The position numbers and the translations under genes are program-made. A DNA stretch of 64,000 bases, taken from positions 672,001 through 736,000 of the forward strand of contig CBDFLQ010000007.1 of NCBI GenBank assembly GCA_965249275.1. Direction: 5' to 3'. Below are positions 2,363 to 64,000 of this stretch, in pieces. The DNA comes from Dehalococcoidia bacterium (lineage in GTDB: Bacteria > Chloroflexota > Dehalococcoidia > Plut-88900). Position 1 is the first letter of the stretch. Each line of letters begins with the position of its first letter. Below the pieces are notes generated by a model, which had not been told where the DNA came from, made no database searches, and worked only from the letters and a program-made list of their open reading frames with translations.

Positions 2363-5185
2363 ATGATTACCCGCACTGAAAACCTCGCCCGCATCCCAAA
2401 GGTCTACGACCCCACCGAGATCGAAGGCCGAATCTACAAGTTTTGGCTCGATAACGGCTACTTCACCCCAACCATAGAAGAGGGCAAGCAGCCCTTTGTC
2501 ATCATCATGCCGCCGCCCAACGTCACCGGCGAGCTTCACCTCGGCCACGCTCTGACTGCCGCCGCCGAGGACGCTCTCATCCGCTGGCATCGCATGATGG
2601 GCGACCCTACCCTCTGGCTCCCGGGCAGCGACCACGCCGGAATCGCAACTCAGGTCGTAGTCGAAAGACAGCTAGTCAAAGAGGGAAAGGCCCGGCAGGA
2701 AATAGGTCGCGAAGCTTTCGTTGCGAGGGTATGGGAATGGGTACGCCAATACGGTCGCACCATCGCAGAGCAGCACAAGAGACTCGGCGCTTCCTGCGAC
2801 TGGACCCGAGAGCGCTTCACCCTCGACGAAGGCCCCAGCCGCGCCGTACGCACCACTTTCGTCAACCTCTACCGCAAGGGCCTTATATACCGCGGCGAGC
2901 GCATCATCAACTGGTGCCCCCGATGCACGACCGCCCTCTCCGACCTCGAGGTCATCCACCAGGAAGTCGATAGCAATCTCTACTACATCCGCTATCCCCA
3001 CGCCCAGGACCCGACCCGCTACCTCACCGTCGCCACCACCCGTCCCGAGACCCTTCTCGGCGACACCGCTGTCGCCGTCAACCCCGACGACGAACGTTTC
3101 GCCGATTTCGTCGGCCAGAATGTGATCCTCCCCCGTCTAAACCGCCCCATCCCCGTCGTCGCCGACACCGCAGTCGACACAGAGTTCGGCACCGGCGCCG
3201 TCAAAGTAACCCCAGCCCATGATCCCAACGACTTCGATATCGCCCAGCGCCACAACCTTCCCCTAATCACTGTAATCGGGCCCCGGTCTTCAATGACCGA
3301 GGCCGCTGGGCCCCAATACACCGGCTTGACCGTCGCAGAGTGCCGAGCCCGCATCCTCCAGGACCTCGAATCCGATGGTCTGCTCGCAAAGGCCGAACCC
3401 CTCACCCACTCCGTTGGGCACTGCCAGCGCTGCAACACAGTCGTCGAACCTATGGCCGGTAAGCAGTGGTTCGTCAAGGTCGGCCCCATGGCTGAGGCCG
3501 CCGCCGCCGCCGTCACCGAGGGCCGTATCCGCATAGTCCCAGACCGCTTCACCAAGGTCTATTTGAACTGGATGGACAACATCCGAGACTGGTGCATCAG
3601 CCGCCAGCTCTGGTGGGGCCATCGTATCCCCGTCTGGTATTGTGATCGGTGCGAACACCTCACCGTCGCTCTGGATGACCCAACAGCCTGCGAGGGTTGT
3701 GGCTCGACCGATATTCGCCAGGACCCCGACGTCCTGGACACATGGTTCAGCTCCGGCCTCTGGCCCCATTCCACCCTCGGCTGGCCCGACAACACCGACG
3801 ACCTCCGCTATTTCTACCCCGGCGCAGTCCTCGAAACAGGCTACGATATCCTCTTCTTCTGGGTCGCCCGCATGATCATGCTCGGCATCCAGAACATGGG
3901 CGACATACCCTTCCACACTGTATATCTCCACGGCCTCATCCAGGACGAACACGGCGAGAAGATGAGTAAGGTGAAGGGCAACGTACTCAATCCCCTCGAA
4001 ATCATCGACGAGCACGGCGCCGACGCCCTCCGCTTTGCCCTCACCGTCGGCACCGCCCCCGGCAACGACAGCCGGCTCAGCGAGGCCAAGATTCGGTCCA
4101 GCCGCAACTTCACCAACAAGCTCTGGAACGCCTCCCGCTACGTCATCTCCATCCTCGACCAAGCCCCATCATCCCCCCCCGTCATTCCTGCGGAGGCAGG
4201 CCGAAGGTCCGCCGAGGAGGAAATCCATCCCCCCCAACCCTCTACTTTATCATCCCAAGACCAGGCAAATATGTCATTCCGACGCTCCGCGAGGAATCTA
4301 GGACTTGCCCACTCAACTTCCTCATCGCAATCCCCTCCCTCCGATTCCCTCCCCATCGAAGACCGCTGGATCCTGAGCCGCTTCCAACGCACCGTCGAGG
4401 ACGTCACCCGCGCCCTCAACGGCTTCCGTCTCGGCGACGCCCAGGAGTACGTCCACGACTTCATCTGGAACGAGTTCTGCGACTGGTATATCGAAATAGC
4501 CAAGATTCGCCTCCGGGACCTTTCCGACTCCCCCTCCCCCGCCCCCGTCCTGGCTCAGGTCCTCGACGGCGCTCTTCGCCTACTCCACCCCTTCATGCCC
4601 TTCATAACCGAGGAAATCTGGCAAACCCTCGTCCAACGAATGCCCGCATCCGGTGATCAGACCGGCTCCATAATGGTCGCCCCATACCCCACCCCCGACC
4701 CCGCCGCCATCGACTCGGAAGCCGAGGAGTGGGCCGGCCTTCTAATGGCCCTCGTCCGCGGTGTACGCAACGTCCGCGCAGAGCGCAAAGTCGAGGCAAG
4801 TAAGAAAATCCTGGCCGTCCTGTTGGATGGCGAGACCCTTGGACCCGGAGGCCAATCTTTCTTAGAAACCCTCGCCCAATGCTCCGTCGAGGCACACGCC
4901 GGCAACACCTCTCAACCAGAGAACTCCATCATGGTCGTCGAAAAGGCCACCCGAGTCTTCCTCCCCCTCGCCGGCCTCTTCGACTTCGCCGTTGAACGAA
5001 ATCGCCTTGAATCAGCCCTTGGGGAATTGGGCAAGAGGATCGCCCAGATCGAGTCCCGCCTTGAGAACAAGCAATTCCTCTCCAAAGCTCCCCCCGACGT
5101 TGTCGAAAAGGAACGCACCCGCCTCTCCGGCTGGCGAGAAGAGGAAGCCAACTTCCTCCACCGCCTCGGTGAACTGGGTCAATAG
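2363..5185 (+). CDS. valS: Valine--tRNA ligase with an in-frame repeat-derived insertion
   Basis: PPPNVTGELHLGH (HIGH), DWCISRQLWWGH, KMSK, C-terminal coiled coil; extra ~45-50 aa before DRWILSR. Confidence 0.98.
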   Translation: MITRTENLARIPKVYDPTEIEGRIYKFWLDNGYFTPTIEEGKQPFVIIMPPPNVTGELHLGHALTAAAEDALIRWHRMMGDPTLWLPGSDHAGIATQVVVERQLVKEGKARQEIGREAFVARVWEWVRQYGRTIAEQHKRLGASCDWTRERFTLDEGPSRAVRTTFVNLYRKGLIYRGERIINWCPRCTTALSDLEVIHQEVDSNLYYIRYPHAQDPTRYLTVATTRPETLLGDTAVAVNPDDERFADFVGQNVILPRLNRPIPVVADTAVDTEFGTGAVKVTPAHDPNDFDIAQRHNLPLITVIGPRSSMTEAAGPQYTGLTVAECRARILQDLESDGLLAKAEPLTHSVGHCQRCNTVVEPMAGKQWFVKVGPMAEAAAAAVTEGRIRIVPDRFTKVYLNWMDNIRDWCISRQLWWGHRIPVWYCDRCEHLTVALDDPTACEGCGSTDIRQDPDVLDTWFSSGLWPHSTLGWPDNTDDLRYFYPGAVLETGYDILFFWVARMIMLGIQNMGDIPFHTVYLHGLIQDEHGEKMSKVKGNVLNPLEIIDEHGADALRFALTVGTAPGNDSRLSEAKIRSSRNFTNKLWNASRYVISILDQAPSSPPVIPAEAGRRSAEEEIHPPQPSTLSSQDQANMSFRRSARNLGLAHSTSSSQSPPSDSLPIEDRWILSRFQRTVEDVTRALNGFRLGDAQEYVHDFIWNEFCDWYIEIAKIRLRDLSDSPSPAPVLAQVLDGALRLLHPFMPFITEEIWQTLVQRMPASGDQTGSIMVAPYPTPDPAAIDSEAEEWAGLLMALVRGVRNVRAERKVEASKKILAVLLDGETLGPGGQSFLETLAQCSVEAHAGNTSQPENSIMVVEKATRVFLPLAGLFDFAVERNRLESALGELGKRIAQIESRLENKQFLSKAPPDVVEKERTRLSGWREEEANFLHRLGELGQ
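4181..4314. repeat. Composite palindromic repeat inside valS (family A with a nested 21-nt hairpin, plus family B)
   Basis: GTCATTCCTGCGGAGGCAGG[CCGAAGGTCCGCCGAGGAGGA]AATCC at 4181-4226 and TGTCATTCCGACGCTCCGCGAGGAATCTAGGACTTGCCC at 4272-4310; both match intergenic copies. Confidence 0.85.
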
Positions 5186-5202: not shown

Positions 5203-5300
5203 GTTATTCCTGCGGAGGCAGGAATCCAGGGGAAGTGTGGGGTTGGGTCCGATCCTCGGGGCGGGGCCGCTCGTGCTGAGGCTCTCGAAGTATGAGCGGG
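5203..5300. repeat. Intergenic REP cluster: family A (5203-5228) and family C (5263-5300)
   Basis: GTTATTCCTGCGGAGGCAGGAATCCA and GGGGCCGCTCGTGCTGAGGCTCTCGAAGTATGAGCGGG; the second is identical to 26623-26660. Confidence 0.85.
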
Positions 5301-10015: not shown

Positions 10016-10181
10016 GGGGCCGCTCACCATGTCGTAGATCCGCCGAGGCGGGAGCTTGCTGCAAGTCCGCTGAGGCGGATCGAAGGGTCGAGCGGGGGCA
10101 CGCACTGCCAATCCGTCACGTACACACAACCCCACCCAACTCTTTGCACATTGTCATTCCGAGGCTCCGCGAGGAATCTAG
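10016..10181. repeat. Composite REP cassette (family C with two nested 21-nt hairpins, spacer, left part of family B)
   Basis: Same order as 52151-52296, including the shared spacer ACTGCCAATCCGTCAC. Confidence 0.8.
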
Positions 10182-12159: not shown

Positions 12160-12219
12160 GGGGCCGCTCGTGCTGTCGTAGATCCGCCGAGGCTGGAGGC
12201 TCTCGAAGTATGAGCGGGG
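12160..12219. repeat. Family C REP with one nested 21-nt hairpin
   Basis: CCGCTCGTGCTG[TCGTAGATCCGCCGAGGCTGG]AGGCTCTCGAAGTATGAGCGGG, between convergent genes. Confidence 0.85.
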
Positions 12220-26483: not shown

Positions 26484-26660
26484 GTCATTCCTGCCCCCGC
26501 AGGAATCCATCCCTCTCAGTTCTTCTTGGGTGACGCCTTTGCCTAACCCTATCGGAGAGCTTGGCGGGCGTCCTACATCCCCTACTGGTCGAGACATTTG
26601 CGTAACCAGTGTTGGAGGGGCGGGGGCCGCTCGTGCTGAGGCTCTCGAAGTATGAGCGGG
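26484..26660. repeat. Intergenic REP cluster: family A (26484-26513) and family C (26623-26660)
   Basis: Same order and motifs as 5203-5300. Confidence 0.8.
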
Positions 26661-34219: not shown

Positions 34220-36919
34220 TTAGTTCCCACCCTCTCTCACCAACCTCGCCACCTCATCCAACGCCGCCGACACCTTGCTCTTGTCCTTTCCCCCCGCCTG
34301 CGCCATCTCCGGGGTCCCACCCCCACCCCCTCCCGCTACCTTCGCCACCCTCTTCACGATATTCCCGGCGTGTAAACCCTTGGCCGCCAGGTCAGGCGTC
34401 GCCATGGCAACGAACATCGGCCTGTCGTTTATCACCGACGCCAGCACCACGAACACGCTCCCCAGCTTAGCCTTCAGAAAGTCGCCCATCTCCCGCATCG
34501 TCTCGACATTCGGCGCATCCACCCGGGCCGCGACCACCTGCGCCCCGTCCACATCCTGCACCCGGCCCAGCAGTCCCTCTGCCTCCCGACGCGCCGCATC
34601 CCGCTCCAGCCTGTCCGCCCGCCTGCGCTCCGCGTCTCGCTCTTCTACTAAGGCCGCGACCTTATCGACGATCTCTTCCGCCGGTGATTTCAGTTGTGCC
34701 GATAGCTCTTCAACGAGGTCGTAGCGCCGCACCAGCAGGTCCTGCACCGAGCCCCCAGTCACCGCTTCGATCCTCCTCAGCCCTGACCCTATGCTCCCCT
34801 CATCCGTTACCTGGAAGTTCCACACCTCTCCCGTACGGCCGACGTGCGTCCCTCCGCAAACCTCGAAGCTGAATCTGTCATCCCCATCCCCCATCGACAC
34901 CAGCCTGACCACGTCCGGATACTTGTCCCCGAAGAATGCCAGCGCGCCCCTGGAAATCGCCTCCGGATACGGGGCCTCGTCGTTGGTAATCTGAAGGTCG
35001 GAGCTAATCTTTTCATTCACCAGGTTTCGGATGTCGTGGAGGTCGGCTCTCCCCAGCCCGACCGGATGCGTGAAGTCGAACCTCAACCTGTCTGGCGCAA
35101 CCAGCGACCCCGCCTGCCTGACGTGCTGCCCGAGCACTTGCCTCAGAGCAGCGTGAAGCAAGTGCGTCGCCGTGTGGTTCCTCGCCGACTCCCTCCGGTG
35201 TCCCGGGTCCACTGTCATCGTCACCGGGTCCCCGACAACCATCTCTCCATCCACAACCCTCCCCCGATGCACGTAGAACCCCAACATCGTAGCCTGCGTG
35301 TCCTCGACAATAATCCGGCCGGCCGGCCCCGTGATCTCCCCCCTGTCCCCGACCTGCCCCCCACCCTCCGCGTAGAAGGGCGTCTCCATCGTCACCACTT
35401 CCAACTCCTCGCCTCCCCCAACCCTCTGCACCGACACCCCTTCCCTCAGCAGCCCCACCACCACCGACTCCCCAGCCAGCGTCTCATATCCTGTGAACCG
35501 TGTCGCACCTAGCCCCACCGCCGCATACGCCTCCGACATCTTGTCCTTGCGGAACGACTGGGCTGCCCTCCCCCGCTCCCTCTGCGCCTCCATCTCCCTC
35601 TCAAACCCCTCCATATCCACCGCGAACCCCTCTTCGGCCGCCACCTCTTCTGTGAGTTCCGGCGGGAACCCGTATGTGTCGTATAGCCTGAAAACGTCCC
35701 GTCCCCCGATAACTCGCTTCCCAACGTCATGTGGTTCCTCCTCAATCGGTGTCGGCGGGATTATCTCAACTTTGCCAAGTTTGATTTCTAACGTTCCTAC
35801 GTTGATTGTGAGATTCTTTACTTCGATCATCCCCGCGTCCAAAGTGTCGTGGAACCGAGATTCTTCCTGCTCAATCACATTCAAGATGAACTCCCGGTTC
35901 CTCTCCAGGTCCGGGTACGCCTCCCTCATATTCTCGATAACCGTCTCGGCTATAGTCACCAGCACCGGCTCCCGAACCCCGAGTTTCCGCGCAAACGTCA
36001 CGGCCCGACGCAATATCCTCCGTAGCACGTACCCCCGGCCCTCATTCCCCGGCACCACGCCGTCGCTGATCAGGAAAGTCGTCCCTCGGGCGTGCTCCGC
36101 CAGCACCCGCATCGCCGCATCCGTTTCCTTGTCCGACCCATACGTGCGCCCGGTCACCTCCGACACTTTCCCCATGATCGCCTGGAACCCGTCAGTCTCG
36201 TAGACGTTCGTAACGCCCTGCATTATCGCCGCCGTCCGCTCCAGCCCCATCCCCGTGTCGATGTTCCCGCTAGGCAGGGGTGTCCGATTGCCCTCCGTGT
36301 CCTGGTAGTACTCGGTGAGCACAAGGTTGTAGAACTCGGTGAACCGGTTGCAATCGCAGGCCGGGCCGCAGTCCGGCTTGCCGCACGAAAGCTCCTTCCC
36401 GAAATCGTAGTAGATCTCTGTGCACGGCCCGCACGGCCCCGAGTCCCCCGGCGGCCCCCACCAATTCTCGCTCTCGTCGTACCGTACTAGCCGTTCTTCC
36501 GGCACCCCCAGTTCCCGCCACAGCTCGTACGACTCGTCGTCACTCAGAAAAACGCTTACCCATAGCTTTTCCGGCGGCAGTTTCAGCCGCTTGGTCACCA
36601 GTTCCCACGCCCACTCTATCGCCTCCTTCTTGAAATAGTCCGCAACACTGAAGTTGCCCAGCATTTCGAAGAAGGTCAGGTGGTCTGCATCCCCCACGGA
36701 GTCGATGTCCGTGGTCCGGAAGCACTTCTGGCACGAGGCCAGCCGAGGCGCGGGGGCCTTGGCCTCCCCCGTGAAAAATGGCTTGACCTGCACCACCCCG
36801 GCGCTGGTCAACAGCAGAGTCGGGTCTCCAATGGGTATCAGGGACGAGCTTGGTATGACCAGGTGCCCCTTCGATTCATAAAAGGACAGGAATGCTCGCC
36901 TTAGCTCGTCGCTGTTCAA
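34220..36919 (-). CDS. alaS: Alanine--tRNA ligase
   Basis: TFFEMLGNFS, DTGMGLER, LYDTYGFP, HTATHLLH, EVCGGTHV. Confidence 0.99.
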   Translation of the reverse strand: MNSDELRRAFLSFYESKGHLVIPSSSLIPIGDPTLLLTSAGVVQVKPFFTGEAKAPAPRLASCQKCFRTTDIDSVGDADHLTFFEMLGNFSVADYFKKEAIEWAWELVTKRLKLPPEKLWVSVFLSDDESYELWRELGVPEERLVRYDESENWWGPPGDSGPCGPCTEIYYDFGKELSCGKPDCGPACDCNRFTEFYNLVLTEYYQDTEGNRTPLPSGNIDTGMGLERTAAIMQGVTNVYETDGFQAIMGKVSEVTGRTYGSDKETDAAMRVLAEHARGTTFLISDGVVPGNEGRGYVLRRILRRAVTFARKLGVREPVLVTIAETVIENMREAYPDLERNREFILNVIEQEESRFHDTLDAGMIEVKNLTINVGTLEIKLGKVEIIPPTPIEEEPHDVGKRVIGGRDVFRLYDTYGFPPELTEEVAAEEGFAVDMEGFEREMEAQRERGRAAQSFRKDKMSEAYAAVGLGATRFTGYETLAGESVVVGLLREGVSVQRVGGGEELEVVTMETPFYAEGGGQVGDRGEITGPAGRIIVEDTQATMLGFYVHRGRVVDGEMVVGDPVTMTVDPGHRRESARNHTATHLLHAALRQVLGQHVRQAGSLVAPDRLRFDFTHPVGLGRADLHDIRNLVNEKISSDLQITNDEAPYPEAISRGALAFFGDKYPDVVRLVSMGDGDDRFSFEVCGGTHVGRTGEVWNFQVTDEGSIGSGLRRIEAVTGGSVQDLLVRRYDLVEELSAQLKSPAEEIVDKVAALVEERDAERRRADRLERDAARREAEGLLGRVQDVDGAQVVAARVDAPNVETMREMGDFLKAKLGSVFVVLASVINDRPMFVAMATPDLAAKGLHAGNIVKRVAKVAGGGGGGTPEMAQAGGKDKSKVSAALDEVARLVREGGN

Positions 36920-36984
36920 CTCTGCCCTTTTCCTTGGGTAGGACCCAATCCGACCTTTGTCTCGCCAATTTCAACTGCCTCACG

Positions 36985-37013
36985 ATTGTAGGCAAACCCC
37001 ATACCTCAGTCAA
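36985..37013 (-). promoter_or_regulatory. Sigma70 promoter of the alaS operon
   Basis: Minus-strand TTGACT-17nt-TACAAT. Confidence 0.6.
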
Positions 37014-37082
37014 CGAACCCTTACATCTGCGTAATTCCCCCAAACCGGATTGCGAAGTACGCCATATCCAAGGGTGGGACAG

Positions 37083-37249
37083 CCCGCTCGTGCTGTCGCA
37101 GGTGGACCATGCGCCTGTAGAGGATCCGCTTCGGCGGGAACCTGCTGAAAGTGGACCATCCGCCTATGGAGGGTCCGCTTATAGAGGATCGAAGTATGAG
37201 CGGGGGGAGTGGGGCCGCTCGTGCTGAGCCCGTCGAAGTATGAGCGGGG
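37083..37249. repeat. Tandem family C REPs, the first expanded by doubly nested hairpin inserts
   Basis: 37083-37204 is CCCGCTCGTGCTG...TCGAAGTATGAGCGGG with two ~43-nt inserts, each holding a GTGGACCAT..GAGG sub-insert; 37211-37249 is the basic form. Confidence 0.85.
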
Positions 37250-37360
37250 AGGGGTACCGCACCCCATAAATACCAATCGACACCCCTAACCGTGTCATGG
37301 GGTAATGCAGCCACTCCCCGCACCCCATGCTATAATCCAAACCCTAAAAGGGAGGCGGCT

Positions 37361-38341
37361 TTGCCCTACCAACGAGACCTTCTGCCCTCGTTCGCCGGTA
37401 TCAACACCTTCGCCCGTGCCCCGCAGGCCGGATTCGAGGATGTCGGGCCCGGTTGCGTCGCCGTCTTAGGCGTCCCCCACGACGGCTCCTCCACCTCCCG
37501 CCAGGGCGTTAGGCAGGGCCCCCGGGCTATCCGGGAAGCCAGCGCCGACTTCATCTACGAACTCCAGGCCTCCGAGGCTGGTGCCCTCATCGACGTCATA
37601 TCAGGCCGGGTGCTCCACCTCCCCCAACCCTCGACCCTTCTCGACCTCGGAGACCTCACCCTTTCTCCTCTGGACCTTCCCGGCAACCTGGATGCTTGCC
37701 GATCCGCCTTCTCCCGCATCGCCGAAGCCGGTGCCTGCCCCGTCGCCCTCGGCGGCGACCGCTTTATCACATTCCCCCTCCTTGAGGGCGTGAAGGCCGG
37801 ATCGGGCCGCAGCCTCGGCCTGATACGCATCTCCGCTGAACTCTCCCTCGCCGACCCCGATTCCCAATACGGCCCCGATTGGTCCGGCGCTTCTATCCGC
37901 CGCATCCTGGACGCCGGCGGCGTCGAGGCCCGTAACACAGTATTAGTCGGGACCCAGGGCTATATACCCTACCGGGAGTGGGAGTACGCTCGCTCACAGG
38001 GCGTCACCGTAATAACCGCCGACTCAGTGAAAGCCGAGGGCCTCGAGGCAACAGTGCGCCGGGCGTTGGAAATCGCAGGACAGGACTGCGAAGCCGTCTA
38101 CCTCAGCCTCGACATCGGCGTTGTCGACTCCGGCTATGCATCCGGTACCGCCGAAGTTGTAGTCGGTGGCCTTATTCCCCGCGACCTGCTCGCTATCATG
38201 CGCGAGCTTTCCGCATTCCCCAGGGTCGCCGCCCTTGACGTAGTAGAGGTAGCCCCCGGTCTCGACGTCCGAGGACGCTCCGAACGCCTCGCTGCCCAGG
38301 CCATTATCGAACTTATTGCACCCCCCGTTTTCGGGGCGTAA
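37361..38341 (+). CDS. Ureohydrolase (arginase/agmatinase) fold protein A, metal ligands lost
   Basis: TTG after GGAGG and TGCTATAAT extended -10; GPRAIR; GGDR, ISAELS and DIGVVD replace GGDH, DxHxD and DxD. Confidence 0.85.
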   Translation: MPYQRDLLPSFAGINTFARAPQAGFEDVGPGCVAVLGVPHDGSSTSRQGVRQGPRAIREASADFIYELQASEAGALIDVISGRVLHLPQPSTLLDLGDLTLSPLDLPGNLDACRSAFSRIAEAGACPVALGGDRFITFPLLEGVKAGSGRSLGLIRISAELSLADPDSQYGPDWSGASIRRILDAGGVEARNTVLVGTQGYIPYREWEYARSQGVTVITADSVKAEGLEATVRRALEIAGQDCEAVYLSLDIGVVDSGYASGTAEVVVGGLIPRDLLAIMRELSAFPRVAALDVVEVAPGLDVRGRSERLAAQAIIELIAPPVFGA

Positions 38342-48465: not shown

Positions 48466-48635
48466 GTAGGGGCGGTTCGCGAACCGCCCGATGTCCCGCA
48501 CTGACGCTGCGCGAACCACCCGACTAGCCCCCCGTAGGGGCGGTTCGTGAACCGCCCGACGCCCCACTCTCACCCTGTCTAAGGGTTGTGTGGCGGTGGG
48601 GCCGCTCACCCTGAGGCCCTCGAAGGGTCGAGCGG
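48466..48635. repeat. Two GTAG-type REP palindromes (48466-48489, 48534-48557) plus a family C element (48598-48635)
   Basis: GTAGGGGCGGTTCG(C/T)GAACCGCCC twice; GGGGCCGCTCACCCTGAGGCCCTCGAAGGGTCGAGCGG. Confidence 0.85.
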
Positions 48636-51967: not shown

Positions 51968-52048
51968 CAATGACCTCCGGCGAAAGTATTGGGCTATTCT
52001 ACCTTTCGCCATTCCCCTTTGCTACCACCCACCCCCGAGGGAAGCCTG

Positions 52049-52378
52049 TCCGCCTTAGGCGGATCATTCCGGCCGCCGAGAGCCGGTCGAAGATGCTGAA
52101 AGTGCGCCTTTGGCGTGCGCCGAGGCGTGAATCCATCCCCCGGCCGATGGCCCGCTCACCCTGAGCCTGCTGTAAGTCCGCTGAGGCGGATCGAAGGGTC
52201 GAGCGGGGGGCGGCCCCCGACTGCCAATCCGTCACCCCCGCCGTCATCCCAACCAAGCCCCCCTACCCTGTCATTCCGAGGCCCCGCGAGGAATCTGGGG
52301 GGCGGAGTCCTATCCCCTCTCCCTTTGACGGGAGAGGGCTAGAGCCTGCCCCGAGTCCCCCCGAGGGGGTGAGGGTGA
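52049..52378. repeat. REP mosaic: mini-hairpin, family C with nested insert, family B, and a CCCCTCTCCC..GGGAGAGGG..GGGTGAGGG element with an internal insert
   Basis: TCCGCCTTAGGCGGA at 52049; elements at 52151-52207, 52269-52296 and 52315-52378. Confidence 0.8.
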
Positions 52379-52404
52379 TCCCCCCCAAAAGTGACACCAG
52401 CCCC

Positions 52405-52434
52405 TTGACCCGATATGAACATATGTACTATATT
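52405..52434 (+). promoter_or_regulatory. Promoter with overlapping LexA/SOS-like box
   Basis: TTGACC...TATATT with GAAC-ATAT-GTAC (52417-52428) in the spacer; resembles the GAAC-N4-GTTC box. Confidence 0.55.
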
Positions 52435-53248
52435 CTCCCCCAGGCCCCGACACCAAACATCGGGCCCAATCAGGAAAGGACCAAAGGAGTCCCATGAGTC
52501 GCACAAGCCTTCATAGGCCCCGTCGACACCGAGCGGTATGCCACCGCCCGGCCACCGGCACGCGCCTCCTCCCCAGCCCCTTCCCACCCACCATCCTTCA
52601 CATCAACACCCACTACAAGCGCTGCCCAAAGGCCCTACGCCTACGCCTTCGCAGCGATCAGTCACCGTCCCGCCCCCTGTATGGAAGGTCCCCGGACAAA
52701 TCACGGCACGCCCTTTCCAAGGACCACTGCCAAGTGCGCGCCCCACTCACCCGGCGCATCCGTTTCGCCTCCTCAGGCGACGCCCTGGAGCACGGCGTCA
52801 TGTCGCTCCCTCGGGCCATAGCGCCCCCTTGGGCCATAGCGCCCTCTTCGGACTCCCCCGGCGTAGACCTTGCCGGCCAGTCCGAACAGTCGGACAACCC
52901 CCGACTCAAAACAAACGCACCATTTAAGGATTCCACCGTCGTCACAACCGGAGAACACCCGACTACGAACGGCGGTCACGGGTCCCCGCTCCCATCCCAT
53001 AGGGTGGTCGAGCACTTCTGGTGGACGGGACTGCCCCACGCCGAGAATTTCTCGGGTCTCGTTCACATCCCCTCAGAAGTTAGGGGCTGTCGCAGAGCCG
53101 TCCCCGATGTGGAACATCCGCTGGAGCGGACGCCAAGCATCGGTACAGGCGTAGACGCCTTCTCGCGCAACCGTCCGGGACCTTCCATCACCCTCCCATC
53201 CCCCACCCACAACCCCACATATCCCTCACCGACCATTGGAGGCCGCCC

Positions 53249-59661: not shown

Positions 59662-59742
59662 GTTTCCTGTGTCTCCTGAGGAGTAAAGCTATGGGATAAC
59701 CGGTGCGCGAGTGTAGCATGGGCCTGTCGGCAGCGACAAGCG

Positions 59743-59782
59743 AAGGGGTCGGCCCGCCGATGGCGGAGCCGACCCCTTTTTT
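59743..59782. terminator. GC hairpin downstream of the sdhE-like gene
   Basis: AAGGGGTCGGC...GCCGACCCCTTTTTT; the loop contains the CCGCC-N3-GGCGG mini-hairpin. Confidence 0.55.
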
Positions 59783-59811
59783 GGTTCAGCTAGAAGCAAC
59801 AAGACCGAGGG

Positions 59812-63442: not shown

Positions 63443-63472
63443 TCCTCCAGAGGCGGATCCTCCAGAGGCGGA
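63443..63472. repeat. Tandem pair of 15-nt mini-hairpins (TCCTCCAGAGGCGGA x2)
   Basis: Exact direct duplication, similar to the nested TCCGCC-N2/3-GGCGGA unit. Confidence 0.6.
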
Positions 63473-64000
63473 TGTTCCATCTTCGATTGTGGGGTTTCGG
63501 TTTCCGTTCTGTCTGTTGGGTTTTGGGAAGGCGATGGAAGACGCTTGCTGGATTCGGCTCCCTATTTTTAGATAATGCGGGCTTGGAGGCGTCCCGGGAA
63601 CGTGGGGACGGGTCTCCGCCGCCGCCTAGACCTGGAAGTATGGTCGGACGTACGGGTCCGTCATCCGTCATAGGCTCCGATGCAGGGTTGGCTGCGCTGT
63701 CCGCCGCAGGCGGGTGCAGGAAGGGGAAAGTCCAGGGTCAGTTCCCCTCGCAGGAGTACGGGGTATCCAGTTCGCCGCCTGTAGCCCGGAGCCGGGAGAC
63801 GGCGGCAGCCCAGTTTATTTGGTAAGCGGACGGAGAGCCGAGCGGGCCTCGGCTACGGGCTGCCCCGTTCCGCTCCATGGGACGAGAGCTCCGAAAGGAG
63901 CCATAGGGACAATTACGGTCCAGGGCGTCTTCCATCGCCTGATGGTCAGGGAAGGGATAGCCGGGGCCCTGGGTAGAGGAGATGGCGGCGTTCGCTTGTG

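Follow-up and report, generated by a model that had tools for sequence, protein, structure and literature searches.

How can a hairpin of 33 nucleotides (nt) come to be 120 nt long and keep both of its ends? The question is raised by the spacer between two divergent genes, alaS (34220–36919, minus strand) and an arginase-family gene (37292–38341, plus strand), in a 64,000-nt stretch of the genome of a Dehalococcoidia bacterium (contig CBDFLQ010000007.1, positions 672,001 to 736,000). We call this whole stretch the window and number its positions from 1. The spacer (36920–37291) holds two plus-strand copies of a repeated hairpin, family C: one in the empty form of 33 nt (37215–37247, reading CCGCTCGTGCTG-AGCCCG-TCGAAGTATGAGCGG) and, 11 nt upstream of it, a filled one of 120 nt (37084–37203). 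The filled copy shares both ends with the 33-nt form, and its extra 87 nt parse exactly into four small hairpin units, one at each of two sites in the host and one more inside each of these. We put the probability at roughly 0.5 that such units are tiny non-autonomous single-strand elements, resembling repetitive extragenic palindromic (REP) sequences, with a mobilising activity other than that of the known hairpin transposases.

Read from 5' to 3' on the plus strand, the filled copy starts with the host 5' arm CCGCTCGTGCTG (37084–37095), directly behind which lies site 1. Here stands the leader TCGCAGG of a first unit type, T1 (37096–37102), separated from the T1 hairpin TCCGCTTCGGCGGGA (37125–37139) by a complete 22-nt unit of a type T3, TGGACCA followed by TGCGCCTGTAGAGGA (37103–37124). 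Five bases, ACCTG (37140–37144), remain of the host apical loop, as judged by comparison with empty copies. Site 2, in that loop, begins with the leader CTGAAAG of a type T2 (37145–37151), and again a 22-nt T3 unit, TGGACCA followed by TCCGCCTATGGAGGG (37152–37173), stands between this leader and its hairpin TCCGCTTATAGAGGA (37174–37188). The host 3' half, TCGAAG followed by TATGAGCGG (37189–37203), closes the structure. The fold energy of 37084–37203 as RNA is −66.3 kcal/mol for the plus strand and −49.1 for the minus strand, with a z-score of −5.09, and as DNA it is −29.8 (plus) and −21.1 (minus) kcal/mol. In the fold the inserts lie in the apical loop or form a multi-branch, and the basal stem is kept.

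The same units are found throughout the source genome (G000; 2.9 Mb in seven contigs, 59% G+C, 87% completeness). Each consists of a 7-nt leader and a GC hairpin of 14–16 nt, T[C/G]CGCC-loop-GGCG[G/T]R or GGAGGA, and the leaders fall into three classes: TCGNAGA (T1), CTGNAAG (T2) and YGGAMCR (T3). Strict patterns match 83, 35 and 32 times respectively (150 in total) and never in the reversed genome, and the backwards pattern for T1 has no match in any of 41 genomes (the source genome, eight congeners and 32 others of the same family and class). Loose patterns give 174 matches. As a short imperfect palindrome at high copy number, mostly intergenic, the unit is of the size and frequency of a REP. 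In the window, CCGCTCGTGCTG with at most one mismatch occurs five times; shuffled versions of the window give a mean of 0.59, and none of 100 reaches five. The bare hairpin TCCGCY-N4-GCGGR taken alone is not significant, since its four window matches are equalled in one of 100 shuffles. The second position of the unit stem covaries as C-G or G.T (TCCGCC/GGCGGG 19 times, TGCGCC/GGCGTG 39 times, mixed twice), so the pairing is that of the written strand; when the other strand is read, A.C mismatches take the place of the G.T pairs. The leader of T1 contains G-N-A-G, where N is A in 51, C in 24, T in 24 and G in 4 of 103 cases, with no association seen between this base and either the flanking bases or the loop; the T2 leader has G-N-AAG and the T3 leader GGAAC. 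The ends of T1 are constant, starting with TCG and ending with G-K-G, in all of families C, C', A, A', E, F, G and H.

Sorted by ad hoc flank rules, with the leftovers judged by eye, 158 of the 174 loose matches lie inside other repeats or other units, at fixed insertion points in at least eight unrelated host families. Family C or its relative C' takes 54 (35 at site 1, 19 at site 2), REPs of the CGTC type take 26, families E, G, I, H and F hold 18, 11, 5, 4 and 4, and 36 units are inside, or directly behind, another unit. The remaining 16 are unclassified; by eye most are degenerate repeat copies, and about four look like chance matches in unique sequence. The CGTC-type hosts (families A, A' and A'') carry CGTC or TGTC as their tag and end in a CCA tail, with a stem of 8 bp that opens with AT and loops often longer than 5 nt, as in CGTC-ATTCCGGC...GCCGGAAT-CCA; in these hosts the unit splits the 3' stem arm between GCCGG and AAT.

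The distance between the fixed flanks of a host is sharply quantised: at eight host sites it takes the values 0, 21–22, 43–44 and 65 nt. For site 1 of family C the gap is 0 nt in 122 copies, 20–22 in 26 and 41–44 in three. Family A has 0 nt in 25 copies, 21 in six, 43 in four and 65 in four; family E has 0 in 34, 21–22 in six and 43 in two; family H has 0 in 16, 22 in four and 43 in one; and family G has 0 in four, 22 in nine, 29 in four and 44 in two. The 43-nt inserts are T2 units within T1 units, for example TCGAAGATG, then CTGAAAG TGCGCCTTTGGCGTG, then CGCCGAGGCGTG, and in the 65-nt inserts an extra T3-type unit lies between the T2 leader and the T2 hairpin. The nesting thus has an order: T2 goes into T1, and T3 goes between leader and hairpin of either T1 or T2. 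T1 itself is found at a G^A step, the left flank ending in G in 88 and the right flank beginning with A in 81 of 103 cases. We saw no target duplication at the unit junctions beyond at most one ambiguous base (G...G), and so none of the target-site duplications expected of miniature inverted-repeat transposable elements. All three stem variants of family C are found in each state: empty, with a unit at site 1, or with one at site 2. By these observations the unit has defined ends and acts like a single piece that can be put in or taken out.

Elsewhere in the window family C is found on the plus strand empty (5267–5299, 26627–26659 and, with the stem variant ACCCTG/GGGTCGAG, 48602–48635), with T1 at site 1 (host 12164–12217, unit 12176–12196), with T2 at site 2 (host 52152–52206, unit 52170–52190), and with T1 and T2 at both (host 10020–10095, units 10032–10052 and 10059–10079). 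A plus-strand T2 unit at 52096–52117 lies in a T1 unit that is itself in a family A REP, and a minus-strand T3 unit at 63458–63479 lies in a family G repeat where the local GC skew is about zero. The initial annotation of this DNA, made from the letters alone, had recognised the single and double inserts at the same positions, a third nesting level at 37083–37204 (the exact span is 37084–37203), the four empty copies (with starts, at 5263, 26623, 37211 and 48598, placed about 4 nt early), a 21-nt module at 4201–4221 in a palindrome within valS, whose host we find to be a CGTC-type REP, and the coexistence of empty and filled alleles with no obvious target duplication; all this agrees with our parsing. 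It had also asked whether the module might belong to one composite repeat, or be no commoner inside palindromes than chance would have it; the eight or more host families and the 158 of 174 matches within repeats or other units speak against both. Of the further hairpins that it called related, the one at 63443 is the family G repeat with its T3 unit, and the one at 59753 is not: the region 59730–59790 reads GGGGTCGGC...GCCGACCCC followed by TTTTTT, which looks like an intrinsic terminator and has no relation to the units.

The units are confined to the genus of the source genome, while the host hairpin C spans phyla. The exact T1 pattern occurs 50 times in the source genome and 37–89 times in each of the congeners G001–G005 and G007 (highest in G001, with 79, and G004, with 89), only four times in G006 and twice in G008, and in none of the 32 other genomes of the family and class. 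The two unit-poor congeners still carry 51 and 27 copies of family C. A looser core pattern gives 60 copies in the source genome versus 0–5 in each of 300 other Chloroflexota genomes, a sample that includes G077 and G181, both at this background level. Six of the nine genus genomes are single contigs; the source genome and G003 are colinear with about 92% identity over 372 kb, and G002 and G005 are about 93% identical.

Differences between these genomes at orthologous loci are clearest in valS (open reading frame, ORF, 2363–5185), where the alignment is safe because the flanks are conserved coding sequence. Two CGTC-type REPs stand in frame between the catalytic and anticodon-binding domains (4160–4330), and the first of them (4180–4226, plus strand) carries a 21-nt unit, also in frame (4201–4221), so that it reads CGTCATTCCTGCGGAGGCAGG, CCGAAGGTCCGCCGAGGAGGA, AATCCATCCC with the unit in the middle. 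In G007 the equivalent REP is empty, and the two sequences differ by a clean 21-nt junction. The empty REP is also present in G003, preceded by a 21-nt partial REP; it is missing from G001, G005 and G008, G002 and G006 have an E-like palindrome at this spot, and G004 has two other CGTC REPs. The set of repeats at this spot thus differs in each of the nine congeners, and the reading frame is kept in all of these because the aligned segments differ between species by multiples of three only.

The spacer between alaS and the arginase-family gene differs in repeat content in nearly every species. G003 has the same 120-nt form together with an empty family C, G002 a filled family A and a family C filled at site 2, G005 a nested-filled A and an empty C, G008 an empty family H, and G006 only a remnant of H, so that family C here is filled in G002 and empty in G005. 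At the 12164 locus the source genome has T1 at site 1 and G003 has T2 at site 2, and a family G copy shows a clean 22-nt difference between G002 and G005. Most of the host sites that can be paired are in the same state: among clear hosts, site 1 of C was empty in both members of four pairs, site 2 likewise in four, and E in one. For family A the automated pairing was not strict enough and picked up coding sequence. An apparent filled/empty pair of family C (G002, position 558) was dropped as a mispairing when aligned. In short contigs from two Logan accessions (X2 and X8), in which repeats cross-map, position 10028 is joined to 10080 with 10 letters between; this joint is the empty form of family C and cannot be placed at the 10020–10095 locus.

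Repeats of every family also obey a strand rule. Plus-strand copies occur where the plus-strand GC skew is negative and minus-strand copies where it is positive, in 79 of 81 empty C, 48 of 52 A and all 41 E copies, and the units follow the same rule (T2 32/33, T1 61/71, T3 17/22). In G001, a closed genome in a single contig, the orientation of 33 of 37 family C copies agrees with a division into two domains, each about half of the chromosome. Relative to the flanking genes, as far as our crude ORF calls define them, all four arrangements occur. Because orientation follows skew and not gene direction, a process at the level of DNA and its replication is indicated. The skew itself is of unusual strength, most 4-kb bins of the window having values of about −0.03 to −0.33; it comes without a matching gene-strand bias and changes sign several times within contigs; an ORF resembling an IS5-family DDE transposase by eye (contig 7, 175470–176423) lies exactly at one switch of orientation and skew. 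The gene dnaA (contig 5, 162233) is 60–90 kb from a minus-to-plus skew change, a position that fits the usual polarity with a G-rich leading strand. Nearly all copies have their better-folding strand on the C-rich strand, which under the usual polarity, our assumption for this lineage, would be the lagging strand. For the small units the difference is modest, with mean fold energies of −3.19 and −2.80 kcal/mol (DNA parameters).

The following scheme could account for these regularities. Each unit would be a short single-stranded leader plus one GC hairpin, and units would join and leave DNA as discrete pieces without duplicating the target. T1 would be inserted at a G^A step, either within another repeated hairpin or next to one, T2 would enter T1 or the apical loop of family C, and T3 the boundary between leader and hairpin of T1 or T2, and repeated rounds of such insertion would build the three-level structure at 37084–37203. 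Since every family is oriented by replichore, we infer a process that acts on one DNA strand and is coupled to replication, whose substrate would be single-stranded DNA and in which some enzyme or host replication factor would do the cutting and joining. The unit would then presumably move by itself, rather than only spread by copying from repeat to repeat.

Several observations weigh against the mobile-unit scheme. The subtype of a unit tracks its host, site 1 of family C mostly holding TCCGCC..GGCGGG and families A and E mostly TGCGCC..GGCGTG, a correlation that would also be expected if filled hosts copied themselves or if gene conversion were at work. Slippage deletions are visible in the 22/29/44-nt series of family G. 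Some junctions are messy, and some filled and empty partners differ in nearby loop bases as well (AGCACCG vs AGCCTG). We caught no recent event among congeners of about 92–93% identity, whose intergenic repeats have largely turned over; in a gapped alignment of the whole region between the source genome and G003 these repeats are too diverged to show clean 21-nt gaps. If the polarity is the usual one, the strand of the repeats that folds better does not serve as the lagging-strand template; IS608 reportedly makes the opposite choice. Finally, no candidate enzyme emerged. The Y1_Tnp domain of REP-associated tyrosine transposases (RAYTs) and IS200 TnpA (PF01797) was found in none of the nine genus genomes and in six of 14 control genomes, and Transposase_31 (PF04754) also in none of the nine. 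The TnpB zinc ribbon (PF07282), the IS110 DEDD domain (PF01548) and reverse transcriptase (RVT_1, PF00078) were not found in the 87%-complete source genome. Among the ORFs flanked by units no nuclease- or recombinase-like gene was visible by eye, these ORFs having had no Pfam scan.

The Y2_Tnp domain (PF04986) has no match in the nine genus genomes, though the control genomes were silent too, and no integron attC core (GTTRRRY) was visible in the sequences that we read, with no search made for an integrase. Inverted doublets are not usual, units and hosts having one orientation per replichore; the 18 opposite-strand pairings of repeats that enclose an ORF within 3.5 kb come down to about six loci, mostly at skew switches. 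Among the genes flanked by inverted repeats or units, one IS5-like transposase was recognised by eye; the others looked like common genes of metabolism or spurious ORFs. The initial annotation, which pictured a tiny element that targets other hairpins, is therefore upheld in part: there is a discrete unit with many hosts whose state differs between congeners, and the RAYT/HUH-type mobiliser proposed for it was not found, with positive controls for PF01797.

It had also suggested a search for DUF559 genes (PF04480) flanked by the module; those that we found are flanked by family E instead. Such genes are present in G000 (L161; contig 5, 22222–22530), G002, G005 (two copies) and G006, the further loci being L158, L159 and L160, with weaker matches in G003 and G007 and none found in G001, G004 and G008. 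DUF559 was rejected as the mobiliser on this distribution, because it was not found in G001 and G004, the two genomes richest in T1. All five strong DUF559 genes nevertheless have family E palindromes, CCCTCTCCC-N5-GGGAGAGGG, within about 20–330 nt, four of them at either flank and, by the pattern used, the G006 gene at just one. This arrangement recalls RAYT genes flanked by their own REPs; a search of a limited library found no report of a link between DUF559 and palindromes.

Before the alternatives are weighed, the host itself deserves a closer look. Empty family C follows the pattern CCGCTC-NNN-YTGAG-N4-6-TCGAAG-N3-4-GAGCGG (33 nt). It has 87 copies in the source genome, 26–92 in all eight congeners and 1–7 in nine of the 32 other family and class genomes, the backwards control being zero everywhere. 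Matches listed at one genome per species come from Dehalococcoidia, from metagenome-assembled genomes of other Chloroflexota and from several other phyla, by record title Acidobacteriota, Anaeromyxobacter, Myxococcales, Chlorobiota, Binatia, Methylomirabilota, Proteobacteria, Chitinispirillaceae, Vicinamibacterales and Croceibacterium. In 41 distinct 33-nt copies among the matches listed, the three free stem positions are paired in 109 of 123 cells, compared with 80 on average, and never more than 93, over 1000 shuffles. The loop CTGAG-N4-TCGAAG is set by the search pattern itself; its commonest form is CTGAGCCTGTCGAAG (36 of 71 copies among the matches listed). A tentative drawing of the loop from the letters has C-G, U-A and tandem G.A/A.G pairs, with a G-C pair closing a pentaloop; site 2 would then fall within the pentaloop, and site 1 would divide G from A in CUGAG. 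Under RNA parameters, 81 of the 87 copies fold more stably as the top strand.

Several side observations concern the same hairpin. Across phyla it often adjoins an inverted variant with the loop on the opposite strand. Its translations, of the types ..LSLSKGER.. and ..RQAQGER.., are presumably common in spurious hypothetical proteins, and the limited library that we searched held no description of such strings. The source genome has three tandem arrays of family C in which the sequence between copies is also similar from unit to unit (contig 5, 56436–56787; contig 7, 213692–213913; contig 6, 397499–397726); two consist of three copies at regular spacings of 159 and 94 nt, and the third packs four copies into 228 nt at intervals of about 65 nt. 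A scan of the window with Rfam 15 gave the small-subunit rRNA as the only match at gathering score, and at E up to 10 the interval 36950–37350 gave three weak miRNA-model matches at chance level. A reading of CUGAG..CGAAG as a hammerhead or other ribozyme was rejected, as it had no Rfam support.

The main rival of the mobile-unit scheme is that the units have no mobility of their own, and that all these structures are a recombining mosaic of repeats in the manner of the bacterial interspersed mosaic elements (BIMEs). Rare illegitimate events would have put a hairpin segment into each host family, and the filled variants would then have spread by amplification of whole repeats, by gene conversion or template switching at the fork, and by slippage. 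The correlation between subtype and host speaks for this rival, the tandem hairpin duplicates and the family G series do resemble slippage, and the lack of any transposase candidate would be natural. Blocks of A, C and tail do recur, the one at 52020–52240 being found also in the alaS/arginase spacer of G002 and G005, and entire repeats have been replaced between genomes of 92% identity. Template switches should, however, give ragged ends, and what we see are constant unit ends in at least eight hosts and a sharply quantised length; the three leader classes follow the nesting order; and G006 and G008 keep the hosts with almost no units, which looks like an activity that is present in some genomes and absent from others. 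We regard the mosaic as rather unlikely. A functional role for the folded structures, as RNA or as protein-binding DNA with a family C core and units as selected optional arms, seems quite improbable to us. The possible roles would be in transcript stability or as binding sites, with nesting reflecting structural tolerance. Conservation of family C across phyla with a covarying stem and a CUGAG..CGAAG loop that is invariant under the search pattern would suit such a role, as would G.U-type pairs that favour one strand, the more stable top strand (81/87), and inserts confined to apical loop or multi-branch with the basal stem kept. Yet orientation follows replication skew rather than the flanking genes, copies lie in frame inside valS, turnover at orthologous sites is quick and Rfam has no match.

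The strand rule by itself may have another origin, namely selection after insertion: strong hairpins in the lagging-strand template would stall or break replication and be lost, whatever the source of the repeats. That the better-folding strand is on the C-rich strand in nearly all copies, that G.T pairs turn into A.C mismatches on the other strand, and that dnaA near the minus-to-plus skew change fits the usual polarity are all as expected from such losses. The polarity in this lineage is itself inferred, however, the energy difference of the small units is modest (−3.19 vs −2.80 kcal/mol), and nesting is left unexplained; we consider this origin of the rule somewhat doubtful. At the other extreme, the scheme of mobile units can be pushed further. 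The units would then be the smallest self-contained transposable pieces so far seen in bacteria (21–22 nt), in three classes that target hairpins or each other's leader–hairpin boundary, moved on one strand at the replication fork by an activity other than Y1/HUH, TnpB, IS110 or reverse transcriptase, which would come either from a new family of enzymes or from a replication or repair factor of the host. We consider so strong a claim rather unlikely.

A yet bolder version would give a part to family I, which might act as template or guide. This is a dispersed repeat of about 800 nt (52395–53195, plus strand, with about 10 more copies in the source genome) that starts with a promoter-like TTGAC-N17-TATATT and has conserved blocks interrupted by indels that are not multiples of three. 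No ORF is conserved in it, and neither Pfam nor Rfam gives a match. It contains a native T3-type unit (53110–53130); all eight congeners have it, and none of the 32 other genomes searched does. We see in it a candidate for a large non-coding RNA or a non-coding mobile element.

BIMEs place their modules side by side, whereas here one unit is inserted into the stem or loop of another. The common feature is the mosaic of intergenic clusters from a few hairpin and linker modules, as known from the enterobacterial BIMEs (mentioned in PMC6006769). The closest precedent, as far as the available parts of the sources go, is the GTAG-23 family of Thermomicrobium roseum (Chloroflexota), whose REPs lie inside palindromes CCGSSCC(n3,4)GGSSCGG that are abundant in the empty state too; GTAG-15 of A. 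variabilis and CGTC-1 of H. neapolitanus also occur inside palindromes (Di Nocera 2013, PMC3733652). In those parts each case has one host palindrome, and self-nesting, three leader classes or a length series are not reported. With GTAG-tagged REPs and the REPIN–RAYT system as portrayed there (PMC3733652, PMC6006769) the units share an imperfect palindrome after an unpaired G-N-A-G, 6-bp stems with G.T pairs, loops of 2–3 nt, and a high copy number in mostly intergenic positions with some in-frame genic copies; at 21–22 nt they are at the small end of the 20–40 bp given for REPs (PMC3733652). They differ in the leader, which is GAAG in 51, GCAG in 24 and GTAG in 24 of 103 cases rather than mostly GTAG (the same account allows degenerate heads such as GYAG and GTRG, and GAAG is not among them), in occurring singly and in one orientation, not as the inverted doublets of REPINs, and in the absence of a RAYT gene from all nine genus genomes.

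Families A, A' and A'' in turn match the description of CGTC-tagged REPs (Neisseria dRS3, Rickettsia RPE-4 and RPE-6), with a CGTC or TGTC tag, an 8–9-bp stem from AT, a 4–5-nt loop and a CCA tail; those too have no dedicated transposase and occur inside genes, but are mostly from Alphaproteobacteria in the account consulted, and here they are hosts of a smaller unit (PMC3733652). The IS200/IS605 elements (IS608, ISDra2) share hairpin-defined ends, the lack of target duplication, insertion beside a short specific sequence and a strong replication orientation bias (PMC6006769, PMC3971601); in the part seen of the latter source, such biases are tied to single-strand transposition (IS200/IS605, IS607) or other replication-linked mechanisms. 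They differ in having TnpA, found in none of the nine genus genomes, and TnpB, not found in the source genome, and in having two different ends and hundreds of bases, compared with one hairpin and 21–22 nt. Within the limited library that we searched, no description of the present repeats was found. What appears to be new beyond the T. roseum precedent is that the units nest in one another to three levels, fall into three leader classes, give inserts of stepped length, use many hosts, are oriented by replichore and occur without any Y1 gene.

How REPs spread without a RAYT is an open question, stated as such for the CGTC REPs (PMC3733652, in the part available). The genus studied here offers a natural contrast: nine genomes free of Y1, all with the host hairpins, of which seven are rich in units and two nearly free of them, so that a comparison of gene content between rich and poor genomes could name the mobilising activity. 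The nesting is a record of the order of insertion, the strict orientation by replichore links the dynamics of the repeats to replication, and the in-frame copies in valS mean that units can reshape proteins. If the units spread by copying only, they would still be a clear case of modular growth of hairpin repeats.

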